Shown here: in pieces, positions 46,865 through 62,528 of the stretch
How positions within the stretch are numbered: position 1 is the first letter of the stretch
How the letters are laid out: the number at the start of each line of letters is the position of its first letter
Origin: Vulcanimicrobiales bacterium
Lineage (GTDB): Bacteria > Vulcanimicrobiota > Vulcanimicrobiia > Vulcanimicrobiales > Vulcanimicrobiaceae
DNA length: 64,000 nucleotides
NCBI GenBank assembly: GCA_038231455.1
Contig: JBBRLI010000006.1
Span: 64,001-128,000, forward strand
Reading direction: 5' to 3'
The notes under the pieces: model-generated
Seen by the model: the letters and a program-made list of their open reading frames with translations, nothing else
The model's database searches: none
Told to the model about the DNA's origin: nothing
Made by a program: the position numbers and the translations under genes

Positions 46865-46899
46865 AGTGCTACGTTCCTTAGCAGATGCGTTCAAAAAAA

Positions 46900-47877: not shown

Positions 47878-48304
47878 GGCGTGCCTCGGCGCGTTTGGCG
47901 GCTAAGAGCTTGGCAAATTCTTCGTAGCTCTCATCATCGTTTGCGAGTTCGCCCGCAATATGCGCGAGGAGCGGATTGCGCTGGCTTCTATAGAGAGGGC
48001 GAAGCACGTCGCCGATCACCGATGCTTGGAACGCTTCACGCGAAATCGCCGGGATAAACAGGTTCGCTCGCCCGGCCGACTTTTTGTTCAGGTGGAGCTT
48101 ATTTACGAGATTCTGCATGATCGTCTTGACCGTCGAATAGGCGAGCGTCTTACCCTCACCGGACTTCTCGATTTCGGTCATCACATCGCTGACGGCCATC
48201 CAATCGCCATATGCCCACATGATCTCGATCACGCGAGATTCGAGTGGGCCAAGGGCGCTGGCCGTATCGTCGGCGCCACCGATGCGGATCGTACGCAAAC
48301 TCAT
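47870..48304 (-). CDS. BlaI/MecI/CopY family repressor
   Basis: LGPLESRVIEIMW, LAYSTVKTIMQNLVNK. Confidence 0.92.
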   Translation of the reverse strand: MSLRTIRIGGADDTASALGPLESRVIEIMWAYGDWMAVSDVMTEIEKSGEGKTLAYSTVKTIMQNLVNKLHLNKKSAGRANLFIPAISREAFQASVIGDVLRPLYRSQRNPLLAHIAGELANDDESYEEFAKLLAAKRAEARRA

Positions 48305-48378
48305 CTGCTAAGGACGCTAGCATATGCCTCGCAGCCGGTCAATCGGATATCATGCAGCGTACGTTCCGCAGTCCTGTA

Positions 48379-48421
48379 TTGACTTAATTGGATACAAGGC
48401 ATAGAATCGAAATATGTCGAT
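48379..48421 (+). promoter_or_regulatory. Sigma70 promoter (leaderless) with ArsR operator
   Basis: TTGACT-N17-TAGAAT-N6-ATG; inverted repeat ATCGA-N6-TCGAT at 48406-48421. Confidence 0.7.
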
Positions 48422-48746
48422 ACAACGTTGTTGCCCGCCGGCCGTCGTCGATGACTCGGATCGCTCGGAGCAGTCCAGCCTTTTTAAGGCGCTCGGAGAT
48501 CCCCATCGCCTGGCCATGCTCGCGACGCTAGCGCGGACGGATGACGAGGTCTGCGTTTGCGACTTCACCAGCGCCTTGCCCTTAGAGCAACCGACGATAT
48601 CACACCACCTCCGATTGCTTCGCGACGCACGCTTGGTTACGTCCGAGCGACGCGGTACATGGGTGTACTATCGCCTGGCAAGCGATGCGTCTGAACGCAT
48701 TGACGCCGCACTACGCTCGGTACTTCCGCAGAAAGTTCTTGCATGA
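48414..48746 (+). CDS. arsR: ArsR/SmtB arsenic-responsive repressor
   Basis: FKALGDPHRL, EVCVCD, QPTISHHL; N-terminal CC. Confidence 0.92.
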   Translation: MSIQRCCPPAVVDDSDRSEQSSLFKALGDPHRLAMLATLARTDDEVCVCDFTSALPLEQPTISHHLRLLRDARLVTSERRGTWVYYRLASDASERIDAALRSVLPQKVLA

Positions 48747-49144
48747 AGATGCATCTGAACCTCGCGACGCGCGACCTCGAAGGCAGCATCGCATTTTACT
48801 CAACGCTCTTTGCCGCCAAGCCGTCCAAGCAACTCCCCGATTACGCGCTCTTTATCACCGAGCACCCGGGACTCGAATTGGCGCTCGATCTCGACCTCGG
48901 CGCTCGAATCGGTGTCAGTGAGCATTTCGGTATCGTTGTCGATTCGCCGCACGAAGTCGATGCTCAGATCGAGCGATTGCGGAATGCCGGCTACGCAGTC
49001 GATATCGAACGTGGCGAGACGTGCTGCTATGCAAATCAAACGAAAGTTTGGGCGAGTGACCCGGAAGGGCGACGTTGGGAGACCTACTTCGTTCACGAAG
49101 AAACCGAGGCGCGCGACGACGATCAGACATCATGCTGCACCTAG
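48743..49144 (+). CDS. arsI: ArsI/CadI family VOC metalloenzyme
   Basis: HLNL, HFGI, TCCYA.Q.KVW..DPEG..WE. Confidence 0.85.
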   Translation: MKMHLNLATRDLEGSIAFYSTLFAAKPSKQLPDYALFITEHPGLELALDLDLGARIGVSEHFGIVVDSPHEVDAQIERLRNAGYAVDIERGETCCYANQTKVWASDPEGRRWETYFVHEETEARDDDQTSCCT

Positions 49145-49163
49145 GTCTCGATTTGGAGAAGGT

Positions 49164-49880
49164 GTGAATTATCGCGCAGTCGCCGCCGAATTTTTTGGCT
49201 CGGTCTTCTTGCTCTTGGCCGTCGTCGGGTCGGGAATTATGGCGGAACGGCTTAGCGGCGGAAACGTCGGCGTCGCGCTCCTTGCGAACACCATCGCGAC
49301 CGGTGGAGCCCTCATCGCGCTTATTTTAGCTTTCGGACCCGTATCCGGCGCGCACTTCAATCCAGCCGTGACCCTGGCCGATGCGTGGCAACGCGGACTC
49401 GCTTGGTCGATGGTCATGCCGTATTTTATCGCTCAGATCGCTGGCGCAATACTTGGGACGGCGCTTGCGAACACGCTGTTCGGCCTGCCGGTTTTTTTTG
49501 CTTCGCACCACTCGCGCTCGGGCGCGGTCCTGCTCGTTAGTGAGTTCGTCGCGACCTTTGGGCTGCTCGCCGTCATCTGGGGCTGCGTACGCTCGCGCCC
49601 ATCGGTAACTCCGTTTGCCGTCGCCGCATATATCGTTGGGGCATACTGGTTCACGCCGTCCACCTCGTTCGCAAATCCCGCTGTGACGATCGCTCGTTCA
49701 CTCACCGATACGTTCGCGGGGATTCGGCCGCAAGATGCCCCGGGTTTTATCATCGTTCAGTTCGCCGGTGCAATCGCGGCGACCGCGCTCTTCGCCTGGC
49801 TAGCCCCGATCTCTTCGGCCACGGCAAAAGCCGTTGTCGTCCCACATTCGAAGGAGAGCCGTGAACTTGTCAGCCGCTAA
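49164..49880 (+). CDS. MIP/aquaglyceroporin (AqpS-like arsenite channel)
   Basis: SGAHFNPAV and STSFANPAV; ars context. Confidence 0.9.
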   Translation: MNYRAVAAEFFGSVFLLLAVVGSGIMAERLSGGNVGVALLANTIATGGALIALILAFGPVSGAHFNPAVTLADAWQRGLAWSMVMPYFIAQIAGAILGTALANTLFGLPVFFASHHSRSGAVLLVSEFVATFGLLAVIWGCVRSRPSVTPFAVAAYIVGAYWFTPSTSFANPAVTIARSLTDTFAGIRPQDAPGFIIVQFAGAIAATALFAWLAPISSATAKAVVVPHSKESRELVSR

Positions 49881-50280
49881 CCAGACGCCATTCGTGTTGT
49901 TCGTTTGTCGGCACAACACCGGCCGTTCGCAGATGGCGGAAGCGTATCTGCGGCACTTCGCGGGCGATAAAATCGAAGTCGCCTCAGCGGGAACGATCGC
50001 CGCCGCGGTCCCCGATCCGCGCGTTGTCGCGATCATGGCGGAGGATGGTATCGATATCAGTGCTGCGCGGCCAAAACTGCTCGACGCGGAGAAAGCCAAG
50101 ATCGCCGATCGCATTATAACGATGGGTTGCGATGTTGAAGGCGTGCCTCGGATCGATGCAGATTGGGGTCTTGCCGATCCCAAAGGTCAGCCGCCTGAGG
50201 CCGTTCGCGAGATTCGGAACACGATCAAAGAAAAAGCCCGCGAGTTAGCGGCCGCCCTACTTGGAACGAACAAAGCTTAG
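49861..50280 (+). CDS. arsC: Arsenate reductase (LMW-PTP family)
   Basis: LFVCRHNTGRSQMAEA, ITMGC, DWGLADPKG. Confidence 0.85.
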   Translation: MNLSAANQTPFVLFVCRHNTGRSQMAEAYLRHFAGDKIEVASAGTIAAAVPDPRVVAIMAEDGIDISAARPKLLDAEKAKIADRIITMGCDVEGVPRIDADWGLADPKGQPPEAVREIRNTIKEKARELAAALLGTNKA

Positions 50281-50330
50281 ACTCGGTGGGGTCTGCCCCG
50301 ACGCCGACTTGCAAGGACCGTGCATCACCT

Positions 50331-53300
50331 TTAAACGGTGATCGCCATTCCGCGATAAATACGCGAACGATAGCGACTGTCGTCGGCGGCGGGTAGTGGG
50401 CCGGATTCAAGGACGAGCGCGCGCGCGAAACGGTCGAGTTCTTCTTGTTGCTCGCTCGTATTACGCGGTTCTTCGCTTTGCACACGGCGCGTGACGTTGA
50501 TCTGATTGACCGGCACTTCATGCACGAGACGTTCGTTCTCGACGGCAATCGTTGCGGTAAGGGCGTGCAGTGTGGTCTTGATGAAATTCGCCAGCGCAAA
50601 TTCCACCGGGTTGCCGCCAAATGGAACGTCGGGGGAGACGAAGACCAGTCGCACGTCTTCGAGCAGTGACACCGTTCGTGCGACGCGAAAGTGATTGGTG
50701 ATATTCTCCTCGATCATCGCTTCGAATCCGGGTCCATCGAGAGCGTGATCGCCTTCGAAAAGCGCGTTCGGTAAGAGACCGAGCGGCATGGAGACGACAG
50801 CCGCCGGGTTCGGATATTCGCTCAGTGCGCGATCGAGCCCGGTCTCGAGGTCCGCGCCGATGACGATGTCGACGATGCGTTCCGCGATCGTCGATCCGAC
50901 GCGTTGACGGACGTGTTTTACTGCTTGTTGCGTGCACGTGATTAGCACCACGCGATCGACGCCGCACTCTTCGACATACGCACGGGCCGCGCGCACCATG
51001 TGTTCGATCGGATGCTCGCCGACGATCCAGACGTTTCGCCCGCGCAGTTGCGCCACGCGCTCGTCCTTCGAGCGACCGAAGAGTTCTCGCTCGGTAATCG
51101 AGCGTTCTTGGCGCAGACCGCCCGAGGGTTGAAACGTTTCGCCCGAGACGGCGCGATCGGCAAGGAAGTACACCGTCGCAAGCGCGACTTCGAGTTCGCT
51201 CGGCATATGCTGCAAATGCAGCATTTTTAGCACCCCCGACCGCACTTTTTCCGCTTCGCGTTCGACCTCGCGCGGTGCAAAGAATGGTTCGGCGGGACGT
51301 TGTGCGATGCCGCATTTGACGTCATCTGAGAGACGATGGCTGCGCTGCAAACGCTCGCAAAGCTTTCGTGAGATATCTTCGTCCATCAGCGCCGTAGCGA
51401 ATGATGAACCTTCGCTTGCGGCCGCCCCCTTCACGATTGCATCGCAGAGATTGCGCAGCGTCGCGGGCGTTGAAGGATCAGCGATGATCTCCGCAATGTC
51501 GTTCCGCATTGCCGCCTGCAGGAACAGATGCGTTTCGCCGCCCGTGCGCACGTGCGCGATCGCCGCGGCGTAGATTGCATTCAGTCTCTTTGCGGCTAAA
51601 ATCAGCTTGCCGCGGCGTTCGAAGAGACCCGGTCCGCCGCCCGTGCCGGCGAGACGGTCGCCCGCAACCGGTCCTGGGGCGATTGCGTTGATTTGAATTT
51701 CGGGACCGACGAATTGCGCGAGCGTCTCGACGATTGCGCGCTGCCCGGCTTTGGATACGGCATAGTCGCTTCGATTGGGATAGGCGACGGCAACGTATTT
51801 CTCTCCGCCGAAGTACGAGCTAACGTTAAGAATGTAGCCGCTGCCGCGCTTTTTCATCTCTGGAACGACGCGCGCCATCAGCGCAAAGTTCGAGATCAGG
51901 TTGGCTTTGAGCGTTCGGCGCCAGCTCTCGAGCGGCATATCGACGACCATTTGTTCGGCCCCCGCTATCCCGGCATTGTTAATGAGATAGTCGATCGAAC
52001 CGAACCGGGAAAGACCACGATCGATCGCAAGGGCGAGCGTCGCGTCGTCTGCGACATCGACGCCGTCGAGTGTTTCGATTCGCGCCGCGGCGTCGTCGTA
52101 GCCGATGGCCGTGAGTTCGCTAACGATATTCTTGCGCATCGTTGCGAGTTGATCCGCACGACGCGCAGCGATGATCACCCGCGCGCCCGCGATTGCCAGC
52201 AGTCGAGCGATCTGGCCGCCAATACCGGCGGAACCTCCCGTAATGAAGGCGACTTTGCCGCGATGGAGGCCGATGAGGCTCTCGCTTGCGCCAAACGTAG
52301 CGCGGGTCGCGCCCGTGCCTTCGCCAAGCGAATCGGGTAAGTACAGATTCACGGGCTTCGTGCGCCGGTTGGTGTAAAGAAGTTTCGCTGTCCACGCCGC
52401 TGCGAACCGCAGCCCTTCGTCTTCGGTATTCGTCCAGCGCACGATTTGATTTGACCAGTCGGCAAAGGGCCGTTTACCAGCCGACGCGTCGAGTTCCGAT
52501 TCGTCACGCCAAACGCGCACGAGCTGTTCTACCGCGGCGCGCCAGATATCGCCATAGACGTTGCCGCGACCGTCGTCTCCGTTCCCGAGAAAAACGACGC
52601 GCGGGTTAGCGCCGATGCGGGCGGTACTCCAATACCGTCCGAGTTCGCGCGCAATCACGATCGCGCCCACGATCTCGCCGTCCAAGAACGCGTCGACGTC
52701 CTCATCGCTGGCGTCGGCCAGCGGCTTGGTGAAATGCTTGGGACCGAACGCGGGCAAAATGACGGCGCCGTGCACGGCACCCGATGTGCGCCGCAACATC
52801 GTTGCGACCGCGTCGGGATCGCGCCGGTCGAGTGCGAGCGTGCGAATGTTGCGATCGAGTTCCAAGTCTCCGAGCTTCGAAGATGCGCTCGTGAGCGCCG
52901 CGTCGTTTGGGACGCTAAGCAAGACCGTAGCTCCGCATTCCGCGTGCGCTCGTGCAACGGCGATGCCGGCTTCGACATCTTCGCCTGAGACGACAAGCAC
53001 GGTACGTCCCGACGCATCGACGATGCGTAGACCGGGACGTGCGGTAAACGTGCTGCGACTTTCCTGTCGCACAAGCATGCCGTGCGTGATCTCGAAGTTG
53101 TGTCCGCTGATCGCGCCCGAATCGTCACTGCCGAGAAAAACCGTCGTGGATGCCACATCGCCAATCGTCGGAAACGGTGTGGCAGGAATGGCGTCCGTGC
53201 CGCCGTTCCGTGAGAGCGTCATCATATCGGTGATCTCGTTTGCCGTGGTGCCGGAAGGCGCGCTGCGGAGGGCGTCCATCGAAGCAAATACGCTATGGAT

Positions 53301-53966
53301 GCGCTCGCTCTCGATCGGGCCGGGAAAGACGGTATTCACGCGAATGCCGCGCTCGCCAAGTTCGTATGCCAGGCGCCGCGACCACGCATTGAGTGCAGCC
53401 TTTGGTACGACGTACCCCGCGCGTCCGAAATAGGCCGTGCGCGAAAAAATTGTGGAAATATTAATGATCGAGGCACCCGGCGCCAAATGTGGAGCTGCGG
53501 CGCGTACGACATTCCATGCCACGCCGAAAAGGTTTCGAGCGGCATCGCCGACCGTCTCGGTGTCGCTTGCACCACCCGCTCGCAGACGCTCGAGATCCGC
53601 GTTCGATATCGGCACGTTTTCGAGTTGTTGGCGTGGTCCGGCGGACCCGGCATTATTCACCAGGACGTCAATTCGGCCGAAGTGCTCGAGGATGCGTGCA
53701 ATACCCGCACGCGCTTGCACGGGATCGCCTGCGTCAAATGGGCTCACGAAGATGCGATCGGCATCAACGTCGGTCTCGGCGATCAGCTTGATTCGGGCGT
53801 TGGCAAGTTTGTCGCCGTCACGCCCGACCATGGCAATCCGTGCTCCCTCAGCAAGGTAACGGCGCGATATTTCGCCGCCAATATTGCCCGCGGCTCCCGT
53901 GATGACCGCGACCTTGCCCGCAAGTCGCAAAACGGGGAGAGACCGGACCGAGTCGACTGAAGCCAT
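50331..53966 (-). CDS. mcr: Bifunctional malonyl-CoA reductase (Chloroflexus-type, malonyl-CoA to 3-hydroxypropionate)
   Basis: About 1211 aa tandem SDR. N-half: ITGAAGNIG, NNAGSAGP, FSRTAYFGRAGYVVPK, PGPIESERI. C-half: ITGGSAGIGGQI, SSYFGGEK...YPNRSDYAVSKAGQR, SGETFQPSGGL. C-terminus IYRGMAITV. Confidence 0.9.
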   Translation of the reverse strand: MASVDSVRSLPVLRLAGKVAVITGAAGNIGGEISRRYLAEGARIAMVGRDGDKLANARIKLIAETDVDADRIFVSPFDAGDPVQARAGIARILEHFGRIDVLVNNAGSAGPRQQLENVPISNADLERLRAGGASDTETVGDAARNLFGVAWNVVRAAAPHLAPGASIINISTIFSRTAYFGRAGYVVPKAALNAWSRRLAYELGERGIRVNTVFPGPIESERIHSVFASMDALRSAPSGTTANEITDMMTLSRNGGTDAIPATPFPTIGDVASTTVFLGSDDSGAISGHNFEITHGMLVRQESRSTFTARPGLRIVDASGRTVLVVSGEDVEAGIAVARAHAECGATVLLSVPNDAALTSASSKLGDLELDRNIRTLALDRRDPDAVATMLRRTSGAVHGAVILPAFGPKHFTKPLADASDEDVDAFLDGEIVGAIVIARELGRYWSTARIGANPRVVFLGNGDDGRGNVYGDIWRAAVEQLVRVWRDESELDASAGKRPFADWSNQIVRWTNTEDEGLRFAAAWTAKLLYTNRRTKPVNLYLPDSLGEGTGATRATFGASESLIGLHRGKVAFITGGSAGIGGQIARLLAIAGARVIIAARRADQLATMRKNIVSELTAIGYDDAAARIETLDGVDVADDATLALAIDRGLSRFGSIDYLINNAGIAGAEQMVVDMPLESWRRTLKANLISNFALMARVVPEMKKRGSGYILNVSSYFGGEKYVAVAYPNRSDYAVSKAGQRAIVETLAQFVGPEIQINAIAPGPVAGDRLAGTGGGPGLFERRGKLILAAKRLNAIYAAAIAHVRTGGETHLFLQAAMRNDIAEIIADPSTPATLRNLCDAIVKGAAASEGSSFATALMDEDISRKLCERLQRSHRLSDDVKCGIAQRPAEPFFAPREVEREAEKVRSGVLKMLHLQHMPSELEVALATVYFLADRAVSGETFQPSGGLRQERSITERELFGRSKDERVAQLRGRNVWIVGEHPIEHMVRAARAYVEECGVDRVVLITCTQQAVKHVRQRVGSTIAERIVDIVIGADLETGLDRALSEYPNPAAVVSMPLGLLPNALFEGDHALDGPGFEAMIEENITNHFRVARTVSLLEDVRLVFVSPDVPFGGNPVEFALANFIKTTLHALTATIAVENERLVHEVPVNQINVTRRVQSEEPRNTSEQQEELDRFARALVLESGPLPAADDSRYRSRIYRGMAITV

Positions 53967-54019
53967 CCTGAACGTGATCCCCACAAGAGAAGAAGCCGTT
54001 GGTCGCCAGAAGCCCCCTT

Positions 54020-54060
54020 ATAATACCCAACCATTGATGAATAGCAACCCATCCAATGGT
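54020..54060 (-). promoter_or_regulatory. Putative mcr promoter with inverted-repeat operator
   Basis: Minus strand TTGCTA-N16-TATTAT; ACCATTG-N17-CAATGGT (54030-54060) spans the -35. Confidence 0.5.
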
Positions 54061-54179
54061 AGAATCTTTGGCGGGGTCTGCCTGAACCGGAAAAAATCTT
54101 CCGGGGGAGGACGCCTGTCGGTAGCCGGGCGAGTCGGGCTGCCGGATACCGAGAACCGAATAGACATCAACGGCGCCCG

Positions 54180-56702
54180 CTACGGGAGATGTAGACGGAT
54201 CGCGTGCCAGACGAGGCCCGGCTCGTACCGGTGGGTCACGACGCCCGTCTCGTGATCCATGGCGTAGAGTCGTAGCCAGCGATTATCGACCAGGTTGCGG
54301 ACCGAATCGTGCTTCGCGATAACGGCATCCATCGCGGCCGTTGGAGCAGCGATGATCACATTGAGACGTTGCGGCTCGTGCATGAACCGCTCCCCATCGT
54401 GCACCGATTGCCAGGGAAGCCCAACCCGAAGATCGCCAGCGTTCCCTTCGAGCACCCCAAGACACCCGGTGACGTTGTGTAAGACCTTATTGCCGGCGCC
54501 GAAGAGTCGATTGTTCACGACCGAACCGTAATATTGAAGATTGATCCAGCTTGCAACGACCATCGGCGCCACCATGATCAGTTCGAGGACGCCGCGGGTC
54601 GTGTCGAGATCGAAGCGGTAATCGTGCAAAAAGGCGCGGCCTTCGAAATCGATGCCGCGCGTGAACTCACGCGGCGCGGCGATGAATGCCGCGTTGTTTG
54701 CCAGTGCCCATTCGGGCCGCACTTGCGCCCAATCGCGGCTACGCACCAGCACGCGACGGTCCGTGTTCTCATCGACCGGGATACCCATGAGCGGCGCGCG
54801 TTCGCGCCGCGTGATCGCGCTCGAGGTTCGAAGCCACCCGTGAACGTCGGTAATTAGCGGGCGATGCGAGCTTGGCAACCGATCCTCATCGTAGATCGTA
54901 ATTTCATCGGTCGTTGTGTCGTGCAGGCAGCCTAGGAACCATGTATCATCTGGAATATCGATTCCGCGGCTACGCAGGCCGACGCGAACACCCGGATCGT
55001 TGCAGATGTCCGCTGCCACGCGCGCGTTGGCCTCGCCGGTATGCCCGCCACATGCTCCGCAATCGAGTCCCGATGCGTGCGGGTTGTTGACGGTCGTGCT
55101 ACCGTGACCGACCATCATGACCAGCGGCGCGAAGTTTCCTTTCATTGACATCGCGCCGAGCACGGCTTCCGCCATGTCGATCTTTTTTTCATCGGTAAAT
55201 CCGGTCGGGCTTCCGCCATCGTTACGCGCCTCGATTTCGGGACCGAGCTTTTGAATCGTCGTCGCGTCAAGACCGTCCGTATTGGGGTCGGTGGTCGGTC
55301 GCGTGAGTGCAAGGCTATCGGTCAGAATTTTACCCGCGAACAAGATGCCGCCGGTTTTGACGAAAATGAACGATGAAACAGCCGAGAGTTTAAACGACTT
55401 CCAGGCCTTATACGCGCGTCGTCGCAAGAGCCGCAGACCGAGGATCTCGGCGTTATCATCGCGCGAGACGCTTTGAACGACTTGTCGTACCGTAAATGCG
55501 GGCGTGAGCAGGACGGGACACTGCGCACCTCCGCGCAGGTGTCCGATCGGCACGTACTCGATCGGGTAGCCAAAGAAACCCGCAAATCCAATCGTTTGCA
55601 CACCCGGCGCTACGCTCTCTAAGGCCCGCCGGTACACTTCGGAACGAACGTCGATGCAGAAAGCCGCTTGCAACTGCGGGCGCGCAGCAACTGCAACGAC
55701 GGCGGGGGATCCGAGCTTCGCGAGAAGCCGCCGCTCGTACGCCGCCTCGTATGCTTCTTGCGCAAGAATATCGATGCTCAGTTCGGGATCATCCCCGAGT
55801 CGCTCGTCCAGCGGAATTGAGGCAGCGTCGTGCATCGCGCGCTCCCAAGCAGAACGGAATTCCGTATCGGAGCGTTGCATGAAAAGCGCGTATCCCCAAA
55901 CCACGCGGATCGCGAGCAACTGAACCAGTGCATCGTTGGTGCCGCCGTAGAGTTCGCTCTCCCAGACGAGATACCGCGCGTACGATGCCCAACCCGCGAT
56001 GTCGAGGAGCGTTTGATGCAAGTACTCGACGAGTGCACGCGGTGGGACGCCGAGCTTCTCGACGACTTCCGCGATAGCTGCGACGGGATCAGCCGGCATG
56101 CTTGCCACGATCCGGCGGAAGCCGGCGATGCCCATGACTTCGGGATTGCGATCGTACTGCATTGCTGCGCGCCACGCGGCAAACGGTCGTAGTTCGCGCT
56201 CGGGTAATTGCCAGACCGTCTGTCCTTCATCAAAATACGCCGCGCTGAATCGTGAAATCTCATCGATCATGAACGCGGTGCCCGAGACCTGGCGATTGCC
56301 CTCGGCGAGCGCGTCGATGATCTCCGCGACACTAGCGACGTGCGCGGGGTGCTTTCTGCGTGCACCTTCCTCCAGCGCGAGCGACTCTTTGAATTCCGCT
56401 ACCGTCTTGGGTGCCTGCCATTCGTGCGGCGCAGCGAAGAGCGCCGTCGCGATATCGGCGTCTTCGATTCGTCCGCTCGCGAGCGCTTCGCGGTAGAACG
56501 AGCGCGGCATCAGCATATCGGCACGCGCCACCCGGTACATCGTGGCGCACGTCGCGTGAAAGCTTTGGTGCGTGAATCCAAGAAATGGATTGACGGCGAC
56601 AAAGTGTTTGAGCGGCCAGAGCGGCGCAATGCGATTGCAGGCTTGTGCGATCACCGATTCGAGATCGATTGTCTTGAGCGTTTCGGGAACGTTGAGGGTC
56701 AT
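54180..56702 (-). CDS. dabA: DabA (DUF2309) beta-carbonic-anhydrase-like subunit of DIC pump
   Basis: IAPLWPLKHFVAVNPFLG; Zn ligands FCIDVRSE, GHGS, LDCGACGG; WAQVRPEW; WINLQYY. Confidence 0.95.
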   Translation of the reverse strand: MTLNVPETLKTIDLESVIAQACNRIAPLWPLKHFVAVNPFLGFTHQSFHATCATMYRVARADMLMPRSFYREALASGRIEDADIATALFAAPHEWQAPKTVAEFKESLALEEGARRKHPAHVASVAEIIDALAEGNRQVSGTAFMIDEISRFSAAYFDEGQTVWQLPERELRPFAAWRAAMQYDRNPEVMGIAGFRRIVASMPADPVAAIAEVVEKLGVPPRALVEYLHQTLLDIAGWASYARYLVWESELYGGTNDALVQLLAIRVVWGYALFMQRSDTEFRSAWERAMHDAASIPLDERLGDDPELSIDILAQEAYEAAYERRLLAKLGSPAVVAVAARPQLQAAFCIDVRSEVYRRALESVAPGVQTIGFAGFFGYPIEYVPIGHLRGGAQCPVLLTPAFTVRQVVQSVSRDDNAEILGLRLLRRRAYKAWKSFKLSAVSSFIFVKTGGILFAGKILTDSLALTRPTTDPNTDGLDATTIQKLGPEIEARNDGGSPTGFTDEKKIDMAEAVLGAMSMKGNFAPLVMMVGHGSTTVNNPHASGLDCGACGGHTGEANARVAADICNDPGVRVGLRSRGIDIPDDTWFLGCLHDTTTDEITIYDEDRLPSSHRPLITDVHGWLRTSSAITRRERAPLMGIPVDENTDRRVLVRSRDWAQVRPEWALANNAAFIAAPREFTRGIDFEGRAFLHDYRFDLDTTRGVLELIMVAPMVVASWINLQYYGSVVNNRLFGAGNKVLHNVTGCLGVLEGNAGDLRVGLPWQSVHDGERFMHEPQRLNVIIAAPTAAMDAVIAKHDSVRNLVDNRWLRLYAMDHETGVVTHRYEPGLVWHAIRLHLP

Positions 56703-56705
56703 TTG

Positions 56706-58316
56706 CTACAACGGCCTCGCGGTGGATGAGAGCGGTTTTGGCGCGGGCGCCGGCCAGAGGCGCACGACGATACGGTTCGCTAGCGTGTTGACATACAGGC
56801 CGTTTGCAACGTGGGCATACATCGCGCGCCATCGGGGCGAAGTAAAGCGGCCCGGCACCCAGTTTTGCAAAAACACGATAACGGCAAAGGCCACGATGAC
56901 CGCTCCGACCAGGGCGATGTCGAGCGGGCCGCGGGCAGGCGCCGCCGGCACCGCGCCGGCAAGCAGAAATTCCATCGTGTACTGGAGGCCAAAATACGCC
57001 GCTGCGATCGCGATGGCCGTCAGCACGGTCCGGCCGACAACGTAGAAGTTGGGCCGGTTTTCAATGCTGCGCGCGAGCAGGTGGACGATGCTGAGCAGCA
57101 GCGTTGCGCCGAGCGCGAACACGCCCGGCTTTTCGGCGATGTCCGCGCCGAAGAGGCGCCCGACGATCGCGACCGCAGCAATGACCATGATGATGACGAA
57201 AATCAAACGCCCCGCGTTCGGTTTGCCTTCGGGCTTTGGCGTGTACGAAGCGCGGGAGATGTCGATCACGCTACCCGAGGATAAGAACGCGTGTGCTTTG
57301 TAGCATGAGTGCGCGACGATGTGCAGGAGCGCTGCGGGAAACGCTCCGATTCCGCACTCGAAGAGCATAAATCCCATCTGCGCCACCGTCGAGTACGCGA
57401 GTGTCACCTTGATGGAACTCTGGGTTAGCATCACCACCGAGCCAAAGAGCGCGGTGAAGCCGCCCACGATGACCAGCGTGTCGAGCGCAGGCAGCGAGAG
57501 CACGATTAAACCGGCAAAGCGCAAGACAAGAAAACCACCGGCATTGATGATGCCGGCGTGCAGCAGCGAAGAAACGGGTGTCGGCGTTTCCATCACTTCG
57601 ATCAGCCAACCGTGTGTCGGGAATTGGGCCGAGGTGAGCAGTGCCGCTAGCACCAGCAACATCGCGGCAACCGAGATGCCGCCGGGCACCGTTGCACCGT
57701 GCAACGCGGCGACGCCGGCGAATACCACACCGTAATCGAGGCTCCCGAAATTGAAGTAGATGAGCACGGCGGCTGCGACGATGCACGTCTCAGCAAGCCG
57801 GCTGACAATAAACTTCTTGCGTCCGGCGAGCACGGCTGCGGGACGGCCGGGATAGAACAAGAGTAATTGCTGCAGGCAGAGCGCCGTCGCGATCCAGGCG
57901 AAGGCGAGCAGCGCTACGTTTCCGGCAATAATTGCGATCAGAATCGAGGCGAGCGTGAGGCAGAGGAATCGCGTGAAACGTACATGCGCCGGATCGCCGT
58001 CGAGGTAGTTCTTGCTGTACAGCGTGACGATGACGCCGACGAAAGCAACGAGGCAATACATCGTGGCGCTAAGCGAGTCGAGGTAGAGTGCCAAGCCGAC
58101 CCCATTCGCACCGAGTGTCTCGGTGTGGAGCGGCCCCTTCGCAACAACCGCGACCGCCGCCGAAACGGCGGTAAGTAGCGCGACGCCGGCGGCCGCAATC
58201 GCGAGCCGATTATACCGTACGGCGGCGCGCAATTTCCGTTCTCCGGGTAGCAGTCCGACCAAGAGCAAACCAATTGGCCCCGCAGCGGCCAGCCACAAGC
58301 TATTCACCCAAGTCAA
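56706..58316 (-). CDS. dabB: DabB (NuoL/ND5-like) membrane subunit of DIC pump
   Basis: SAQFPTHGWLIEVMETPTPVSSLLHAG, STVAQMGFM, HIVAHSCYKAHAFL; adjacent to dabA; no other nuo genes nearby. Confidence 0.93.
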   Translation of the reverse strand: MTWVNSLWLAAAGPIGLLLVGLLPGERKLRAAVRYNRLAIAAAGVALLTAVSAAVAVVAKGPLHTETLGANGVGLALYLDSLSATMYCLVAFVGVIVTLYSKNYLDGDPAHVRFTRFLCLTLASILIAIIAGNVALLAFAWIATALCLQQLLLFYPGRPAAVLAGRKKFIVSRLAETCIVAAAVLIYFNFGSLDYGVVFAGVAALHGATVPGGISVAAMLLVLAALLTSAQFPTHGWLIEVMETPTPVSSLLHAGIINAGGFLVLRFAGLIVLSLPALDTLVIVGGFTALFGSVVMLTQSSIKVTLAYSTVAQMGFMLFECGIGAFPAALLHIVAHSCYKAHAFLSSGSVIDISRASYTPKPEGKPNAGRLIFVIIMVIAAVAIVGRLFGADIAEKPGVFALGATLLLSIVHLLARSIENRPNFYVVGRTVLTAIAIAAAYFGLQYTMEFLLAGAVPAAPARGPLDIALVGAVIVAFAVIVFLQNWVPGRFTSPRWRAMYAHVANGLYVNTLANRIVVRLWPAPAPKPLSSTARPL

Positions 58317-58432
58317 CGTACGCCACGCCTTTCGTTTAAAACACTCGTGATGGAGTTAATCAAAGCGAGGCCGCCTAAAAGGGAGGCGACGATCACTCGA
58401 ACGAGCCCTGCAGGGACTGGACACACGAATCG

Positions 58433-58474
58433 CATAACATGAACTCTATTGCATGTTTTGATACCATAGTCGCG
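58433..58474. promoter_or_regulatory. Operator inverted repeat and leaderless promoter of wHTH regulator
   Basis: AACATG-N10-CATGTT (58436-58457); TG-a-TACCAT-N6-GTG(58474). Confidence 0.55.
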
Positions 58475-58782
58475 TGAGTGTCGTCAAGAAGCGCGCCGTC
58501 GGATCCGAGGCGCGAACCGGCTGGACGTTTTTGACCAATCACGCGCATGTCTTGATCGCGCTTACGCGCGACCCGTTAGCGCGTGTTCGAGACCTCGCGC
58601 TCTCGGTTGGCATCACCGAGCGAGCGATTTTGCAAATCCTTTCCGACCTCGAAGCGGGCGGCGTGATCGAGCGCCTGCGCGAGGGCCGCCGGAACACCTA
58701 CCGGATCAATAAAGAGGTCCGTTTGCGACACCCGCTCGAGTCCAACCACCGAATCGATGAGCTTCTGACGCTCGCGCGATAA
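58474..58782 (+). CDS. Winged-helix (MarR/ArsR-like) regulator, divergent from dabBA
   Basis: WTFLTNHAHVL, RDLALSVGITERA, REGRRNTY, LRHPLE. Confidence 0.85.
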   Translation: MSVVKKRAVGSEARTGWTFLTNHAHVLIALTRDPLARVRDLALSVGITERAILQILSDLEAGGVIERLREGRRNTYRINKEVRLRHPLESNHRIDELLTLAR

Positions 58783-58970
58783 GCCGCATCGCGAATGGCG
58801 AGGCAAATCCAGAACCGGTTCGCTCACTGATGTAAATCGCGGCTTCGCCATATTCTGATTCAGGCGCAGCACGTCGGTGTCGGCAGCTTCCTGAGTTCAT
58901 TTGTCGCGTCGCTCGATGGCGGCTCCGCGGTGGACACAACACTTGCCCTGGGGAGGCCCGAGGGCGTATA

Positions 58971-59006
58971 GTGGGTGAAAGTGGTGTCTAGTGGGAGCTA
59001 GTGGGG
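58971..59006 (+). promoter_or_regulatory. MraZ-binding direct repeats (dcw promoter)
   Basis: GTGG(G/T) at 58971, 58981, 58991 and 59001 (10-bp period), overlapping the TATAGT -10. Confidence 0.85.
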
Positions 59007-59013
59007 ATATTTT

Positions 59014-59460
59014 TTGGCCGCCGATCGACCGCTCTTTACCGGGTCAGTCGAACACAGCCTTGACGACAAGGGTCGCCTCGTCGTGCCCGCCCGCTTCCGC
59101 GAACGCCTCGGCGCCGGCTTCTTCTTAACGATCGCCGAGCCCGACCCGTGCCTCGCCCTCTACCCGGCCCCGACGTGGGCCGAGTTCTGCGCCAAGCTCG
59201 AAGCCGCGCCGACTAAGGACGCGCGCTACCGGAGCTTCGTCCGGCACGTCTTCGCGAATACGGAAGAACTCTCGTGCGATAACCAGGGACGCCTCGTCAT
59301 CCCCGGTCATCTGCGTGCCCACGCGAAAATCGAAAAAGACGTTGTCTCCGTTGGTTCGCTCACGCGTATCGAAGTCTGGGGTCGCGAACGCTATAAAGAG
59401 CAAGCCAAGGCTGCGGCGACGGAGTTGTTCGACTTCGCCACCGAGCTTGGGCTGTATTAG
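59014..59460 (+). CDS. mraZ: Transcriptional regulator MraZ
   Basis: LDDKGRLVVPARFR, DNQGRLVIP, IEVW. Confidence 0.96.
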   Translation: MAADRPLFTGSVEHSLDDKGRLVVPARFRERLGAGFFLTIAEPDPCLALYPAPTWAEFCAKLEAAPTKDARYRSFVRHVFANTEELSCDNQGRLVIPGHLRAHAKIEKDVVSVGSLTRIEVWGRERYKEQAKAAATELFDFATELGLY

Positions 59461-59463
59461 TGC

Positions 59464-60345
59464 GTGGGGCACGTCTCCGTATTGCCCGCCGAGTCAATCG
59501 CGGCGCTTGCTCTCGTCCCGGACGGCACGTATGTCGATGCGACGTTCGGAGCGGGCGGTCATACGGCGTTGATGCTCGCGGCACTCTCGCCCGCGGGGCG
59601 GATCGTTGCCTTCGATGCGGATCCCGACGCGCGCGAGCGCGATCTGCGGGACCCGCGCGTGACGCTCGTGCATGCAAACTTTCGCGCGTTGCGCTCGGAA
59701 TTGGAAGCGCGTGGGATCTCACAGATCGATGGGATTCTCTACGACTTGGGGACGAGTTCGATGCAACTCGATAGCGCCGATCGCGGCTTCTCGTTTCGCG
59801 AAGACGCGCCGCTCGATATGCGCATGGATCCGACGCAAGGCGAATCGGTCGCCGAACTTCTTGCCGAGCGCGAAGAAAAAGAAATCGCCGACATCATCTT
59901 TGAATTCGGCGACGAACGCGCAGCGCGCCGCATCGCGCGCGCGATCGTCCAGAAGCGTACGATTGGCCGCGTGCCGACGACGACGGGAGAACTCGCTTCG
60001 CTCGTCTCGGGCGTCGTGCATCAAGCGGGCAAGCGCGAACGCACGCATCCCGCAACGCGCACCTTTCAGGCGCTCCGTATTGCGGTCAACGACGAACTCG
60101 GCGCGTTACGCGACTCGCTCGATGCAGCGATGGGCGTCGTGAAACCCGATGGTCGGATCGCCGTCATCAGCTTTCACTCCCTCGAAGACCGCATCGTGAA
60201 GACGACCTTCCGTGACGATCCGCGCGTCGCGCGGGTGACGCGCAAACCGATCGTGCCCACAGGTGAAGAAACCGCCGCCAATCCCCGTTCGCGTAGCGCG
60301 AAGCTCCGCGTTGCCGCCGTTCTTGCTCAGGAGTCCGACGCATGA
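59464..60345 (+). CDS. rsmH: 16S rRNA m4C1402 methyltransferase
   Basis: HVSVL, DATFGAGGH, RGFSF..DAPLDMRMD, HPATRTFQALRIAVN, SFHSLEDR. Confidence 0.97.
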   Translation: MGHVSVLPAESIAALALVPDGTYVDATFGAGGHTALMLAALSPAGRIVAFDADPDARERDLRDPRVTLVHANFRALRSELEARGISQIDGILYDLGTSSMQLDSADRGFSFREDAPLDMRMDPTQGESVAELLAEREEKEIADIIFEFGDERAARRIARAIVQKRTIGRVPTTTGELASLVSGVVHQAGKRERTHPATRTFQALRIAVNDELGALRDSLDAAMGVVKPDGRIAVISFHSLEDRIVKTTFRDDPRVARVTRKPIVPTGEETAANPRSRSAKLRVAAVLAQESDA

Positions 60346-60776
60346 TTGCCCCGCAGCGAGTTCCCCAATACGAGATCCCGCGTTCGCGCGAACGCGCAAA
60401 ACAGGCTACCCGCCGACGGTCGACGCGCGCCAAAGCGCGTGCGTACGTCGGTCTTGGGCGTATCGCGGTTGCCGTCGGCCTCATCGTCGTTCCGCTCATG
60501 GTGTATGTGATGCTCACGGCGAACCTCACGGGCATGCACTATGCGGTCGCGCGCGCGGAGACGCAGCGTACGACGCTCACGGATGAAACGCAGCGCCTCG
60601 ACGATAAAATTGCGCAGCTCGAATCGCGCGAACGCCTCTCGGCCGTCGCCGCAAAACTCCATATGCACGATCCGCGCGAGTACGCGGTCGTCGCCTTACC
60701 GAATCCCGCCGCGAAGCCGAAACCCAAAGGCATTGCGTTTCTCGGGAGCATGGGCGACTGGTTCAGTCGGCAGTAG
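60342..60776 (+). CDS. ftsL: FtsL-like cell division protein
   Basis: Single TM plus coiled coil, between rsmH and the PBP gene. Confidence 0.75.
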   Translation: MIAPQRVPQYEIPRSRERAKQATRRRSTRAKARAYVGLGRIAVAVGLIVVPLMVYVMLTANLTGMHYAVARAETQRTTLTDETQRLDDKIAQLESRERLSAVAAKLHMHDPREYAVVALPNPAAKPKPKGIAFLGSMGDWFSRQ

Positions 60777-62528
60777 GTGGCCGCACGTTCGTTTTCGCGC
60801 GTCGCTCCCGGGCGCGCGAAGATCACGTTCTACGCGATCGTCGGGATCGCGCTTTTTCTTTCTTGGCGGCTCTATGACGTCCAGATCCGTCAAGGTCCGC
60901 ATTTAGCGGCGATCGCCCAAAGCCAGCGTTCCGATACGGTCGAACTCTTTGCCAAGCGCGGCACCATCACCGATCGCGAGGGCAACGTGCTCGTGCGCTC
61001 GATGCCCTCCGAGAGCGTCTCCGCCGTCCCGACGAATATCGTCGATCCGCTCAAGACCGCAACGGAACTCGCGCCGATCCTCGGCATGAAAGCGCACGAT
61101 ATCGAGCTTGCGCTGCGCGATCGTTCGCAGTTCCGCTGGCTAGCGCGAAAAATCTCGCACGACGTCGCGCTTCGCGTCGCCGCGCTCAATGTTACCGGTA
61201 TCGCGATCGTTCGGGAAGAGACGGGCACGCGCTTTACGCCTGCCGGTCATCTCGCATCGACCGTGCTTGGCTTTGTCGGCGTCGATGAATCCGGGCTCGA
61301 GGGGCTCGAGTCGGCATTCGATACGTATCTGAGAGGCACGACCGGAAAGATGAAAATCGAGGCCGATCAGTTCGGCCGTGCGATTCCATTTGCCGAGACG
61401 CGGATCATCGAAAAAGCGCACCCCGGTCGCCACATCCAACTCGCGCTCGATTCGTACTTGCAGTTCGCAACGGAACGCGCGCTGCGCGACCGCGTGCACG
61501 AATCGCACGCGCGCAGCGGCACGGCGATCGTCATGGATCCGAACACGGGCGAGATTCTCGCGCTTGCAAACGCGCCCGATTACGAGCCCGCGCACTTCTA
61601 CCGCTTTTCGGCCGACGCCAGGCGCGACCGCGCAGTGATGGATGCCTACGAGCCGGGTTCGACGTTTAAATTGATAACGGCGGCCGCCGCGCTCGAGTCG
61701 CACCATATCGGACCCAATGCCATGTTTCCAGCGCTCGATTCGCTTGAAGTCGGCGGCCGGGTCATTCACAATGCCGAGGACGGCCTGATGGCGGGCGGCG
61801 GCGGAAGCGAATCGCTCGAGCAGATCATCGCGCTCTCGCACAATGTCGGCGCGGCCGAGATCGGCATCGCGACAGGTCCGCGCGATCTTTATAAAACGAT
61901 CCGCGCGTTTGGCTTCGGCGACCCCACCAACATCGAACTTCCCGGTGAAAATCCGGGCATCGTGCCGCCGCCCGATCAGTGGAGCGGCAGCTCCACCGCG
62001 ACGATTTCGTTTGGCCATGGGATCTCGACGACGCCGATCGCGCTCGTGCGCGCGTATGCCGCAATCGCCAACGGCGGTTTGCTGCTGCGCCCGCGTATCG
62101 TACACGCACTCATCGGTGAAGACGGCGCCCCGTTCTTCACCTACCCAACGGAAATCGAACACCGCGCGATCTCTGTGCAGACCGCGGCGACCTTGCGCCG
62201 CTATCTCCGGGCCGTCGTCATGCGCGGCACCGGGAAAGACAACGCGCAAATTCCCGGGTATACGACGGCTGGGAAAACCGGCACCGCGCAAGTGGTCGAA
62301 AACGGACGCTACGAACCGGGCGAATACATCGCCTCGTTTATCGGGTATGTCCCGGCGGAACGTCCGAAGTTCGTGATTTTTGTGAAGATCGAGCGGCCGC
62401 GCGGCGTGTACTACGGCGGCACGGTCGCAGCACCGGTGTTCGCGCAACTCGCGCGCATTGCAATGCTGCATGCGGGCGTCTTGCCGACGGCGGCGGCAAA
62501 ATCGCGGCTCGCGGCGAAAGCGCCGTAA
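60777..62528 (+). CDS. ftsI: Class B penicillin-binding protein (FtsI)
   Basis: RGTITDR, EPGSTFK, SHN, KTGTAQ. Confidence 0.93.
   Translation: MAARSFSRVAPGRAKITFYAIVGIALFLSWRLYDVQIRQGPHLAAIAQSQRSDTVELFAKRGTITDREGNVLVRSMPSESVSAVPTNIVDPLKTATELAPILGMKAHDIELALRDRSQFRWLARKISHDVALRVAALNVTGIAIVREETGTRFTPAGHLASTVLGFVGVDESGLEGLESAFDTYLRGTTGKMKIEADQFGRAIPFAETRIIEKAHPGRHIQLALDSYLQFATERALRDRVHESHARSGTAIVMDPNTGEILALANAPDYEPAHFYRFSADARRDRAVMDAYEPGSTFKLITAAAALESHHIGPNAMFPALDSLEVGGRVIHNAEDGLMAGGGGSESLEQIIALSHNVGAAEIGIATGPRDLYKTIRAFGFGDPTNIELPGENPGIVPPPDQWSGSSTATISFGHGISTTPIALVRAYAAIANGGLLLRPRIVHALIGEDGAPFFTYPTEIEHRAISVQTAATLRRYLRAVVMRGTGKDNAQIPGYTTAGKTGTAQVVENGRYEPGEYIASFIGYVPAERPKFVIFVKIERPRGVYYGGTVAAPVFAQLARIAMLHAGVLPTAAAKSRLAAKAP

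Follow-up and report, generated by a model that had tools for sequence, protein, structure and literature searches.

Why should a bicarbonate pump stand beside a malonyl-coenzyme A (CoA) reductase (Mcr) in a phototroph that has its own Calvin-Benson-Bassham (CBB) cycle genes? The question is raised by three co-oriented genes, dabB, dabA, and mcr, and a divergent gene for a small winged helix-turn-helix (wHTH) protein, which lie together in a 64,000-nucleotide stretch of DNA (the window; positions 64001 to 128000 of contig C6) from a Vulcanimicrobiaceae-like genome. An original prediction, made from the letters of the window alone, had read these genes as a carbon-concentrating module that feeds acetyl-CoA carboxylase and, through malonyl-CoA, the formation of 3-hydroxypropionate (3HP). 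Our preferred reading is a branch in which bicarbonate raised by DabBA would pass through acetyl-CoA carboxylase to Mcr in a bacteriochlorophyll phototroph with a Calvin cycle, and we hold it to be about evenly balanced between right and wrong. We rank it first, with the adjacency as a mere by-product of rearrangement as its main rival. What is new here is the combination of an orphan Mcr with an adjoining DAB pump in a phototroph of the Eremiobacterota that carries CBB genes; the component parts were already known.

Identity of the Mcr and DabBA proteins

The mcr product aligns with solved malonyl-CoA reductases (MCRs) from end to end. Its residues 18 to 1217 align with residues 4 to 1229 of chain 8hi4_A (1184.5 bits), and 8hjw_A, a full-length MCR chain, matches at 1134.5 bits. 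It has about 1,220 residues in four tandem domains of the short-chain dehydrogenase/reductase (SDR) type, two of them catalytic, and the Pfam family adh_short is found twice. The full-length protein and both YxxxK sites that had been claimed for it were recovered, the latter as Y191-K195 and Y741-K745. In SDR1, T178, Y185, R188, Y191, and K195 are all kept in the 8hi4_A alignment; their equivalents in the Roseiflexus (Rfx) enzyme are T165, Y172, R175, Y178, and K182, comprising the Thr-Tyr-Lys triad and the Tyr and Arg that bind malonate semialdehyde. In SDR3 and the extra domain, S723, Y735, R738, Y741, K745, R777, L787, and R791 are likewise all kept (Rfx S731, Y743, R746, Y749, K753, R785, L795, and R799), which covers the Ser-Tyr-Lys triad, the YxxRxxY motif, and the CoA- or malonyl-binding Arg, Leu, and Arg. 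Mutagenesis of the Roseiflexus MCR has defined essential catalytic and substrate-binding residues, including an SDR4 arginine (Rfx R1164) that binds malonyl-CoA, according to the available part of PMC10470521. R1152 of the window protein fits the C-terminal offset of 12 to that arginine and may be its equivalent. It is invariant in 27 homologues, as are most of the mapped catalytic and binding residues. We identify the protein as a predicted bifunctional malonyl-CoA reductase of the bacterial type.

Mcr could instead run in the reverse sense, oxidizing environmental 3HP, or reduce another acyl-CoA, and the bicarbonate supply would then be irrelevant. The window mcr has no Pcs partner, whereas pcs is adjacent at 57 of 80 other Mcr loci, and the mcr of G183, an Eremiobacterota genome of another genus, also has unrelated neighbors (genes for a PanE-like reductase, a chlorite-dismutase-family protein, an esterase, and a glutathione S-transferase). 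However, all of the mapped residues that Roseiflexus mutagenesis ties to the binding of malonyl-CoA, malonate semialdehyde, or CoA are kept, and the protein is 55 to 58% identical to Mcr homologues adjoining pcs. We consider this alternative improbable.

DabA matches the whole PF10070 profile (positions 1 to 747) at 889.5 bits, and its best PDB match is 9rd0_A, a chain named DabA2 (622.8 bits). The C/D/H/C zinc ligands claimed from the sequence were located at C349, D351, H533, and C548. DabA also keeps R353, which forms the Asp-Arg dyad with D351, and L667, the leucine of DW...RPEW.L, together with the motifs GFAGFFG and DWAQVRPEWAL. The beta-carbonic anhydrase (beta-CA) site and the DAB-specific motifs are as described for DAB in the available sections of PMC13684180. 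DabB matches PF00361 (Proton_antipo_M; 122.7 bits) and PF00662 (Proton_antipo_N; 39.9 bits) and exceeds the cut-off of 380 for NCBIfam NF006029 with 383.5 bits. No further open reading frame (ORF) with PF00361, as expected of a second antiporter-like subunit (DabC), occurs between positions 50331 and 58782. DabBA is thus a predicted two-subunit vectorial carbonic anhydrase of the DAB2 type, and by alignment the catalytic residues checked in both DabA and Mcr are intact.

Close relatives of the window DabA include P0264 and P0265 (90 to 91% identity). Two proteins 67% identical to it, P0280 (1383 amino acids) and P0297 (1379 amino acids), are natural DabB-DabA fusions with PF00662, PF00361, and PF10070. 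Another, P0379 (66% identity), is named Bradyrhizobium sp. ORS 278, which we take to be a photosynthetic Bradyrhizobium and which would fit a tie of this DabA type to phototrophs.

The host genome and the rest of the 3HP bi-cycle

The host genome (G000; 3.71 Mb in 106 contigs) is 93.67% complete, so that gene absences are not absolute. The host RpoB shares 94% identity with a protein named Vulcanimicrobium alpinum, which bears out the expectation of a non-Chloroflexota host. Other top matches are named Vulcanimicrobiaceae, Candidatus Baltobacteraceae, Elarobacter, and Eremiobacteraeota, and many metagenome proteins match at 93 to 99%. A Gemmatimonadota, Steroidobacteraceae, or Myxococcota host was rejected, with RpoB only about 58 to 71% identical in the three of five named genomes that gave a match. 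The host is a phototrophic, Vulcanimicrobiaceae-like member of the Eremiobacterota (WPS-2). Two Photo_RC genes, pufL and pufM of a type II reaction center, lie at C8:68186-69842, and a CobN/Mg-chelatase-family protein of 1325 amino acids is encoded. Contig C27 carries a form-I-like RuBisCO large subunit gene with a divergent cbbR, as well as prk and glpX. In their available parts, two reports on phototrophic members of the phylum describe the CBB cycle and no 3HP bi-cycle (Ward 2019, PMC6664022; Yabe 2022, PMC9758169).

The presence of Mcr raises the alternative of a complete or alternative autotrophic 3HP cycle, for which Dab would concentrate carbon at the entry. Several parts are present besides Mcr. 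The genome encodes carboxyltransferases of the acetyl-CoA carboxylase type and two of the PccB type, and contig C2 combines a carboxyltransferase, a biotin carboxylase-biotin carboxyl carrier protein, an epimerase-like glyoxalase-fold protein, and a methylmalonyl-CoA-mutase-family protein, with two further genes of that family making three. A predicted route from propionyl-CoA to succinyl-CoA is therefore encoded. A single HpcH_HpaI aldolase/lyase-family gene, which may or may not encode Mcl, lies on C28 (110.5 bits), and the genome gives one weak beta-CA match. Against these stand the missing steps. The genome has 24 ORFs of at least 1200 amino acids, and the 20 longest all lack the Pcs domain set. 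Five Pcs queries searched by tblastn gave only generic acyl-CoA ligases and enoyl-CoA hydratases, all partial, at about 22 to 50% identity, mostly about 30 to 45%, and at best 216 bits. Family III CoA-transferases (CoA_transf_3, PF02515; the family of Mct and SmtAB) gave no match at all, and no enzyme leading from 3HP to propionyl-CoA was identified in the genome. The absence of Pcs and of family III CoA-transferases rules out the complete bi-cycle, and autotrophy by that route, which the original prediction had entertained, is excluded within the 93.7% completeness. With CBB genes present as well, and with the phylum reports cited above, we regard any autotrophic 3HP cycle here as very improbable.

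An unrelated observation from the same set of long ORFs is a class II ribonucleotide reductase of 1980 amino acids with intein-splicing and LAGLIDADG domains (G000:C5:112403-118342; L089).

Distribution and origin of mcr

Among 8000 scored candidates, 1239 proteins were Mcr homologues at E <= 1e-50. An Mcr relative was encoded in 535 of 600 matched stretches of GTDB species genomes, with titles from Pseudomonadota, Gemmatimonadota, Chloroflexota, Chlorobiota, Chloracidobacterium, and Myxococcales. None of the 72,556 PLSDB plasmid records carried Mcr at the same threshold, and a protein atlas gave only generic SDR/Mcr clusters, commonest in Pseudomonadota. Within the Eremiobacterota Mcr is rare: it occurs in 2 of 401 genomes of a phylum-wide sample, the present genome and G183 (66% identity), and in 0 of the 40 nearest relatives of the present genome.

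Trees were built with FastTree (84 rows) and IQ-TREE in quick mode (39 rows), excluding rows shorter than 1100 amino acids. In both, the window Mcr pairs with P0002 (90% identity), and the pair is sister to the G183 protein, P0003, and P0005. The window Mcr belongs to a 9-row clade (support, 100) of the G183 Mcr and metagenome proteins of no stated taxon, which is nested in a 27-row clade (SH-aLRT, 100). The rows of this larger clade come from Pseudomonadota, Gemmatimonadota, and metagenomes without a name, and every Chloroflexota row falls outside it. The label "Chloroflexus type" given earlier therefore holds for the architecture of the protein but not for its phylogeny. The RpoB matches and the Mcr trees together rule out the Chloroflexota as host or as donor, and mcr was acquired horizontally from the lineage typical of aerobic anoxygenic phototrophs.

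Mcr is tied to phototrophy, within the Sphingomonadales and beyond. The reaction center genes pufLM were found in 19 of 19 Mcr-bearing Sphingomonadales and in 18 of 19 other Mcr genomes. Further orphan mcr genes occur in phototrophs with type I reaction centers, at loci L050, L051, L085, and L064 (Chlorobiota of the Chloroherpetonaceae and Thermochlorobacteriaceae, and Chloracidobacterium metagenome-assembled genomes); these loci are outside the set with adjacent pcs, and the genomes lack DabA. Locus L063, on a contig titled Acidovorax delafieldii CCH4-A2, encodes an Mcr nearly identical to that of Blastomonas (branch lengths, 0.004 to 0.024). Since its genome, G628, falls in the Sphingomonadales sample, the record is probably mislabeled or contaminated.

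Dab-Mcr adjacency and co-occurrence in other lineages

We looked for adjacency of dab and mcr in GTDB species genomes, taking 80 Mcr loci together with as much as 10 kb of flanking sequence. In L038 (Oceanicaulis sp.), dabB-dabA is convergent to pcs-mcr, and the dabA ORF ends 76 bp after mcr. In L020 (Novosphingobium acidiphilum DSM 19966), the two units are again convergent, with a P-II-like ORF and an unassigned ORF between them. The Pcs domain set was confirmed at both loci. Because their DabA proteins are only 41% (L038) and 33% (L020) identical to that of the window, the units are convergent, and pcs is present, the window, L038, and L020 represent three independent joinings. The dab adjacency is absent at L037 and L079, the sisters of L038 and L020 in the Mcr tree. 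The P-II-like gene of L020 (14672-15064; PF00543, 59.1 bits) lies directly downstream of dabA, and the locus has a divergent LysR regulator. A metagenome scan dominated by generic SDR matches gave only 20 loci that were true Mcr. Their identity did not exceed 59%, and dab was absent from all of their flanks, many of which were short.

Co-occurrence extends further than adjacency. In an even sample of 301 Sphingomonadales genomes, Mcr was found in 19, DabA in 32, and pufLM in 48. DabA was present in 16 of the 19 Mcr-bearing genomes compared to 16 of the 282 without Mcr (P = 2.7e-14), and among the 48 genomes with pufLM the counts were 16 of 19 and 8 of 29 (P = 2.8e-4); these Fisher tests exclude the center genome and ignore relatedness, so that the P values overstate the significance of genomes that are not independent. 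RuBisCO was found in only 1 of the 35 Sphingomonadales bearing DabA or Mcr, a genome without Mcr, and no match occurred in the 19 Mcr-bearing genomes, indicating that Dab is no RuBisCO accessory in this group. In the Gemmatimonadota, DabA occurs in 4 of 6 Mcr carriers compared to 5 of 199 noncarriers (carriers and noncarriers were pooled from separate samples), and in the Eremiobacterota it occurs in both Mcr carriers compared to 2 of 39 Mcr-lacking relatives. Taken together, 46 of the 80 species genomes with Mcr encode DabA at E <= 1e-30. The link between Dab and Mcr thus has comparative support but is not universal.

The wHTH regulator and the dabA-mcr spacer

The wHTH protein matches Pfam HTH_24 weakly (23.5 bits) and an ArsR/SmtB-like NCBIfam model below its cut-off (26.1 bits). 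Homologues stand beside dabB in G001, a genome of the same genus (75% identity, divergent), in G183 (63%, divergent), and at a second dab locus of the host genome on contig C16 (62%, co-oriented). Because the protein occurs at these three other dab loci, and because G001 has the wHTH-dabBA unit without mcr, we assign it to dab as a putative regulator of dab and not of mcr. The wHTH/dabB region contains an inverted repeat, AACATG-N10-CATGTT, at 58436-58457, and related CATG palindromes occupy the same region in G001 (ACATGAAA-N4-TTTCATGT; L113, about 16909-16928) and in G183 (TTCATGCT-N6-AGCATGAA; L208, about 5618-5639). The repeat is a candidate wHTH operator of putative function. A role of the wHTH protein in regulating mcr was rejected, as the wHTH-dabB region and the dabA-mcr spacer share no 9-mer or palindrome.

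Within the spacer, TTGCTA-16-TATTAT at 54047-54020 resembles a promoter, and the dabA stop is marked by a weak hairpin. Shuffled sequences contain at least as many promoter-like and terminator-like sites as this region, and with a fold z-score of -0.05 a structured RNA or terminator was discarded. Either cotranscription of dabA and mcr across the gap of 195 to 213 bp or a separate promoter is possible.

At the second dab locus (L114, 9297-14061), the wHTH paralogue, dabB, and dabA (43% identical to the window DabA) are all co-oriented. This locus adjoins genes for a GntR regulator and a 3-hydroxyisobutyrate-dehydrogenase-like protein, and its DabA shares 54% identity with the G018 protein.

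Gene order in related genomes and rearrangement as the main alternative

Conservation of dab-mcr synteny in relatives had been proposed as a check. It fails in the two related genomes, G001 and G183, and is met with in the distant loci L038 and L020. In G001, the dabB and dabA products are each 87% identical to those of the window, and mcr is absent. The wHTH-dabBA segment is 82% identical at the nucleotide level, homology stops at position 54207, essentially the dabA stop, and a convergent SpoIIE-family gene follows dabA; neither the spacer nor mcr is matched in G001. The divergent wHTH/dabB-dabA arrangement recurs in G183 (DabB, 57% identity; DabA, 59% identity), whose mcr lies on a different contig with neither dab nor pcs as a neighbor. 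Compared to G001, the window is a mosaic, with its resistance-nodulation-division (RND)/M56 block mapping to contig C4, arsC to C7, dabBA-wHTH to C1, and the division and cell wall (dcw) genes to C16, and with sharp synteny breaks at 58942 (dcw, 86.6% nucleotide identity) and at 54207. Since four neighboring blocks map to four G001 contigs, the region is a rearrangement hot spot.

These observations lend weight to the main alternative, in which the genes became neighbors as a side effect of genome rearrangement, DabBA serves as a general supply of dissolved inorganic carbon (DIC) for anaplerosis, fatty acid synthesis, and possibly the CBB cycle, Mcr is unrelated and separately transcribed, and the co-occurrence reflects shared habitat or phototrophy. 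Besides the mosaic with its sharp breaks, the presence of dabBA without mcr in G001, the separation of the two in G183, and the promoter-like site in the spacer would all fit. So would the distribution of DabA, which in the Sphingomonadales sample is enriched in phototrophs as such (24 of 48 genomes with pufLM compared to 8 of 253 without) and occurs in 8 of 29 phototrophs that lack Mcr. However, three independent adjacencies exceed the expectation for two genes in genomes of 3 to 4 Mb, DabA is still enriched among Mcr carriers when only phototrophs are compared, and DabA, otherwise rare, is present in both of the only two Eremiobacterota in which Mcr was found. We judge the by-product explanation to be a serious contender that is nonetheless somewhat unlikely.

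Two side observations concern the neighbors of dab in these genomes. The G001 module (L113, 17265-19989) adjoins genes for a radical-SAM protein of 607 amino acids with a biotin/thiamin synthesis associated (BATS) domain and for a class I/II aminotransferase. An aminotransferase gene also follows dabA in G183 (L208, 9720-10913), and a link to biotin metabolism is a possibility only.

A proposed bicarbonate-dependent branch

Bicarbonate is the true substrate of biotin carboxylases such as acetyl-CoA and propionyl-CoA carboxylases. In the branch that we favor, the locus would join two separately evolved units, a wHTH-regulated DabBA and a horizontally acquired Mcr. The membrane potential would drive CO2 hydration by DabBA and raise cytosolic bicarbonate, which would feed acetyl-CoA carboxylase, and Mcr would pull malonyl-CoA to 3HP at a cost of 2 NADPH. 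The net result would be a RuBisCO-independent branch that consumes bicarbonate and reductant and is active when light gives ample energy and reductant. Stand-alone, unlinked enzymes might then activate and reduce 3HP to propionyl-CoA, from which the encoded carboxylase-like enzyme, epimerase, and mutase would lead to succinyl-CoA. Alternatively, release or storage of 3HP may provide a redox valve. That DabBA and Mcr act in one pathway, that they are coexpressed, and what becomes of 3HP are matters that we infer. The module of Dab, carboxylase, and Mcr foreseen in the original prediction is made plausible by the adjacencies in L038 and L020 and by the co-occurrence without RuBisCO in the Sphingomonadales; it is not an autotrophic cycle, and the host has the CBB cycle.

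Several results weigh against the proposed branch. Because Pcs is missing, no known enzyme of this genome consumes 3HP. Dab need not serve Mcr, because the genome has its own CBB genes and a type II reaction center; given that the host carries prk besides RuBisCO and has two dab loci, Dab may serve general or CBB-related needs. No site similar to the candidate operator lies upstream of mcr, and a spacer of 195 to 213 bp with a promoter-like site separates mcr from dabA. The wHTH-dabBA unit of G001 exists in a genome without any mcr, and mcr and the dab module are on different contigs in G183. Of 100 other Mcr loci, many with short flanks, only two showed the adjacency (both among the 80 from GTDB and none among the 20 from metagenomes), and in all seven Sphingomonadales with both genes on one contig these are more than 300 kb apart. 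DabA is absent from the Mcr genomes of six Steroidobacteraceae, three Chlorobiota, and one Chloracidobacterium and present in only 4 of the 14 with an Mcr of the marine gammaproteobacterial clade. The relatedness of the genomes compared by the Fisher tests counts on the same side.

Layout and integrity of the locus

The ORF coordinates agree with the arrangement originally described, with dabB, dabA, and mcr on the minus strand and the wHTH gene on the plus strand (Table 1), and the window indeed holds no RuBisCO or other 3HP gene. Only 3 nt separate the dabB stop from the dabA start. For mcr, the likelier start is the ATG at 53966, with the conserved N terminus MASVDSVRSLPVLRLAGKV.

Table 1. 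Coordinates of the dab-mcr locus in the window
Feature	Position	Strand	Description
mcr	50331-53984	minus	1217 amino acids from GTG; predicted malonyl-CoA reductase; last gene of the co-oriented run
dabA-mcr spacer	53985-54179	minus	195 bp to GTG, 213 bp to ATG at 53966
dabA	54180-56702	minus	840 amino acids; predicted beta-carbonic-anhydrase-like catalytic subunit of a two-subunit DAB2-type pump
dabB	56706-58316	minus	536 amino acids; predicted membrane proton-conducting subunit, NuoL/Mrp-like
wHTH/dabB divergent control region	58317-58473	no strand	contains the inverted repeat at 58436-58457
wHTH gene	58474-58782	plus	102 amino acids, divergent from dabB; putative small winged-helix regulator, Dab-associated

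The immediate neighbors of mcr are dabA and arsC. The right flank is a dcw cluster (mraZ, rsmH, a penicillin-binding protein gene, and murE). The left flank consists of an ars cluster, a BlaR1-like M56 peptidase gene, and an RND efflux pair. The arsenic cluster (48414-50280, plus strand) is convergent with mcr and comprises arsR (97.6 bits), an ArsI/CadI-type metalloenzyme of the vicinal oxygen chelate fold (127.3 bits), a channel of the major intrinsic protein family, and an arsC of the low-molecular-weight-phosphatase type; in G001, a nucleotide match exists for arsC alone, and it lies on a different contig. The block at 41802-48304, which encodes an RND permease (1056 amino acids), an unusually long membrane-fusion protein (685 amino acids), and the BlaR1-like M56 peptidase with a small upstream ORF, is 64 to 73% identical in nucleotides to G001 contig C4.

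As the genome is a metagenome-assembled genome of 106 contigs and the region is nonsyntenic with the sister species, the gene order might be an artifact of assembly or binning. However, a separately assembled Logan contig of 19,190 bases, probably from a run on the same sample as the genome, spans 47000-61000 in one piece and covers every junction with 0 differences and a flat depth of about 15. The G+C content is even (0.585 to 0.648 over 48 to 64 kb), and nucleotide identity to G001 is 86.6% for the dcw genes, which share the contig, and 82% for dabBA. Because the Logan contig matches without a difference, the gene order is not an assembler-specific chimera, and the match rules out nothing beyond that. 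An artifact is extremely improbable.

Implications of the dab-mcr pairing

Already in print, in the available parts of the sources, are Mcr with Pcs in aerobic anoxygenic phototrophs, for which a role in CO2 coassimilation has been proposed (bioRxiv 10.1101/2023.09.27.559767; PMC13702023), and DAB/MpsAB-type systems that supply DIC for carboxylations in nonautotrophs (PMC8567241, PMC8552792). DIC "toolkits" are described for hydroxypropionate-bicycle Chloroflexota in the available part of PMC10880623. Judged by title, no paper tying DabA/DabB to Mcr and no report of Mcr in the Eremiobacterota was found in the literature; the supplementary tables of PMC6664022, PMC10880623, and PMC13702023 were outside the coverage of both searches.

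The pairing hints at an unrecognized way of drawing in inorganic carbon. More broadly, and only tentatively, DAB and Mcr might form a recurrent, RuBisCO-independent and light-associated module that assimilates bicarbonate or dissipates reductant and has spread horizontally among anoxygenic phototrophs of the Pseudomonadota, Gemmatimonadota, Chloroflexota, Myxococcota, and Eremiobacterota, physically joined here with an Mcr that lacks Pcs; we think this broader view rather doubtful. If it were true, there would be either an unrecognized pathway that takes 3HP further or one that ends at 3HP, beside a functioning Calvin cycle. The cross-phylum co-occurrence of DabA and Mcr is a directly testable by-product of the finding. 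Soils, lakes, ice, and the ocean all harbor abundant aerobic and facultative anoxygenic phototrophs, whose CO2 uptake is usually dismissed as minor anaplerosis. If a bicarbonate pump driven by the membrane potential regularly fed the branch of acetyl-CoA carboxylase and Mcr, light-stimulated uptake of inorganic carbon by such "heterotrophs" would gain a defined and testable genetic basis, with dabA and mcr as simple markers. In the Eremiobacterota, to our knowledge a phylum with one cultured member, a second branch that depends on bicarbonate, for carbon or redox, would stand next to the Calvin cycle. Of these two, the phylum literature, in its available parts, gives only the CBB cycle. For engineering, the natural pairing of a DAB pump with Mcr would, by our own reasoning, fit the design logic for 3HP production from CO2.

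Comparison with known systems

The window Mcr has the same length and four-SDR architecture as the MCR of Roseiflexus castenholzii (8HI4), that of Chloroflexus aurantiacus, which we take to be the source of 8HJW, and the one presumably from Porphyrobacter dokdonensis (6K8S-6K8W). In comparison to the Chloroflexota MCRs, all mapped residues named in the available part of PMC10470521 are kept, whereas the protein falls outside the Chloroflexota clade and its host belongs to a phylum reported, in the accessible sections of Ward 2019 (PMC6664022), to be without the bi-cycle.

Aerobic anoxygenic phototrophs (Erythrobacter/Porphyrobacter, Blastomonas, Gemmatimonas, and Halieaceae) offer another close parallel in their pcs-mcr pair, known as the "partial 3HP bi-cycle," with which the window shares a type II phototroph host and the same broad Mcr clade. 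In contrast to that pair, and to the 57 of 80 other loci with adjacent pcs, the window mcr has no pcs beside it or elsewhere in the genome, dabBA takes the neighboring place, and the host also has RuBisCO and prk. The clusters of L038 and L020 resemble the window in the physical linkage of a DAB pump to Mcr in a pufLM-bearing genome and differ from it in their convergent units and the presence of pcs; the L020 dab operon, moreover, has the divergent LysR gene instead of a small wHTH gene.

The carboxysome-based CO2-concentrating mechanism is not matched, as RuBisCO lies on C27 and the dab loci lie on C6 and C16. Like DAB2 of Halothiobacillus neapolitanus (9RD0) and MpsAB of Staphylococcus aureus, the window has a dabB-dabA pair with PF10070 and PF00361, and the beta-CA zinc site and DAB motifs of these systems are kept in its DabA. 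Unlike DAB2, the unit is not beside RuBisCO or carboxysome genes, although shell genes (PF00936) were not searched for, and unlike both DAB2 and MpsAB, it comes with a small wHTH gene and a downstream mcr.

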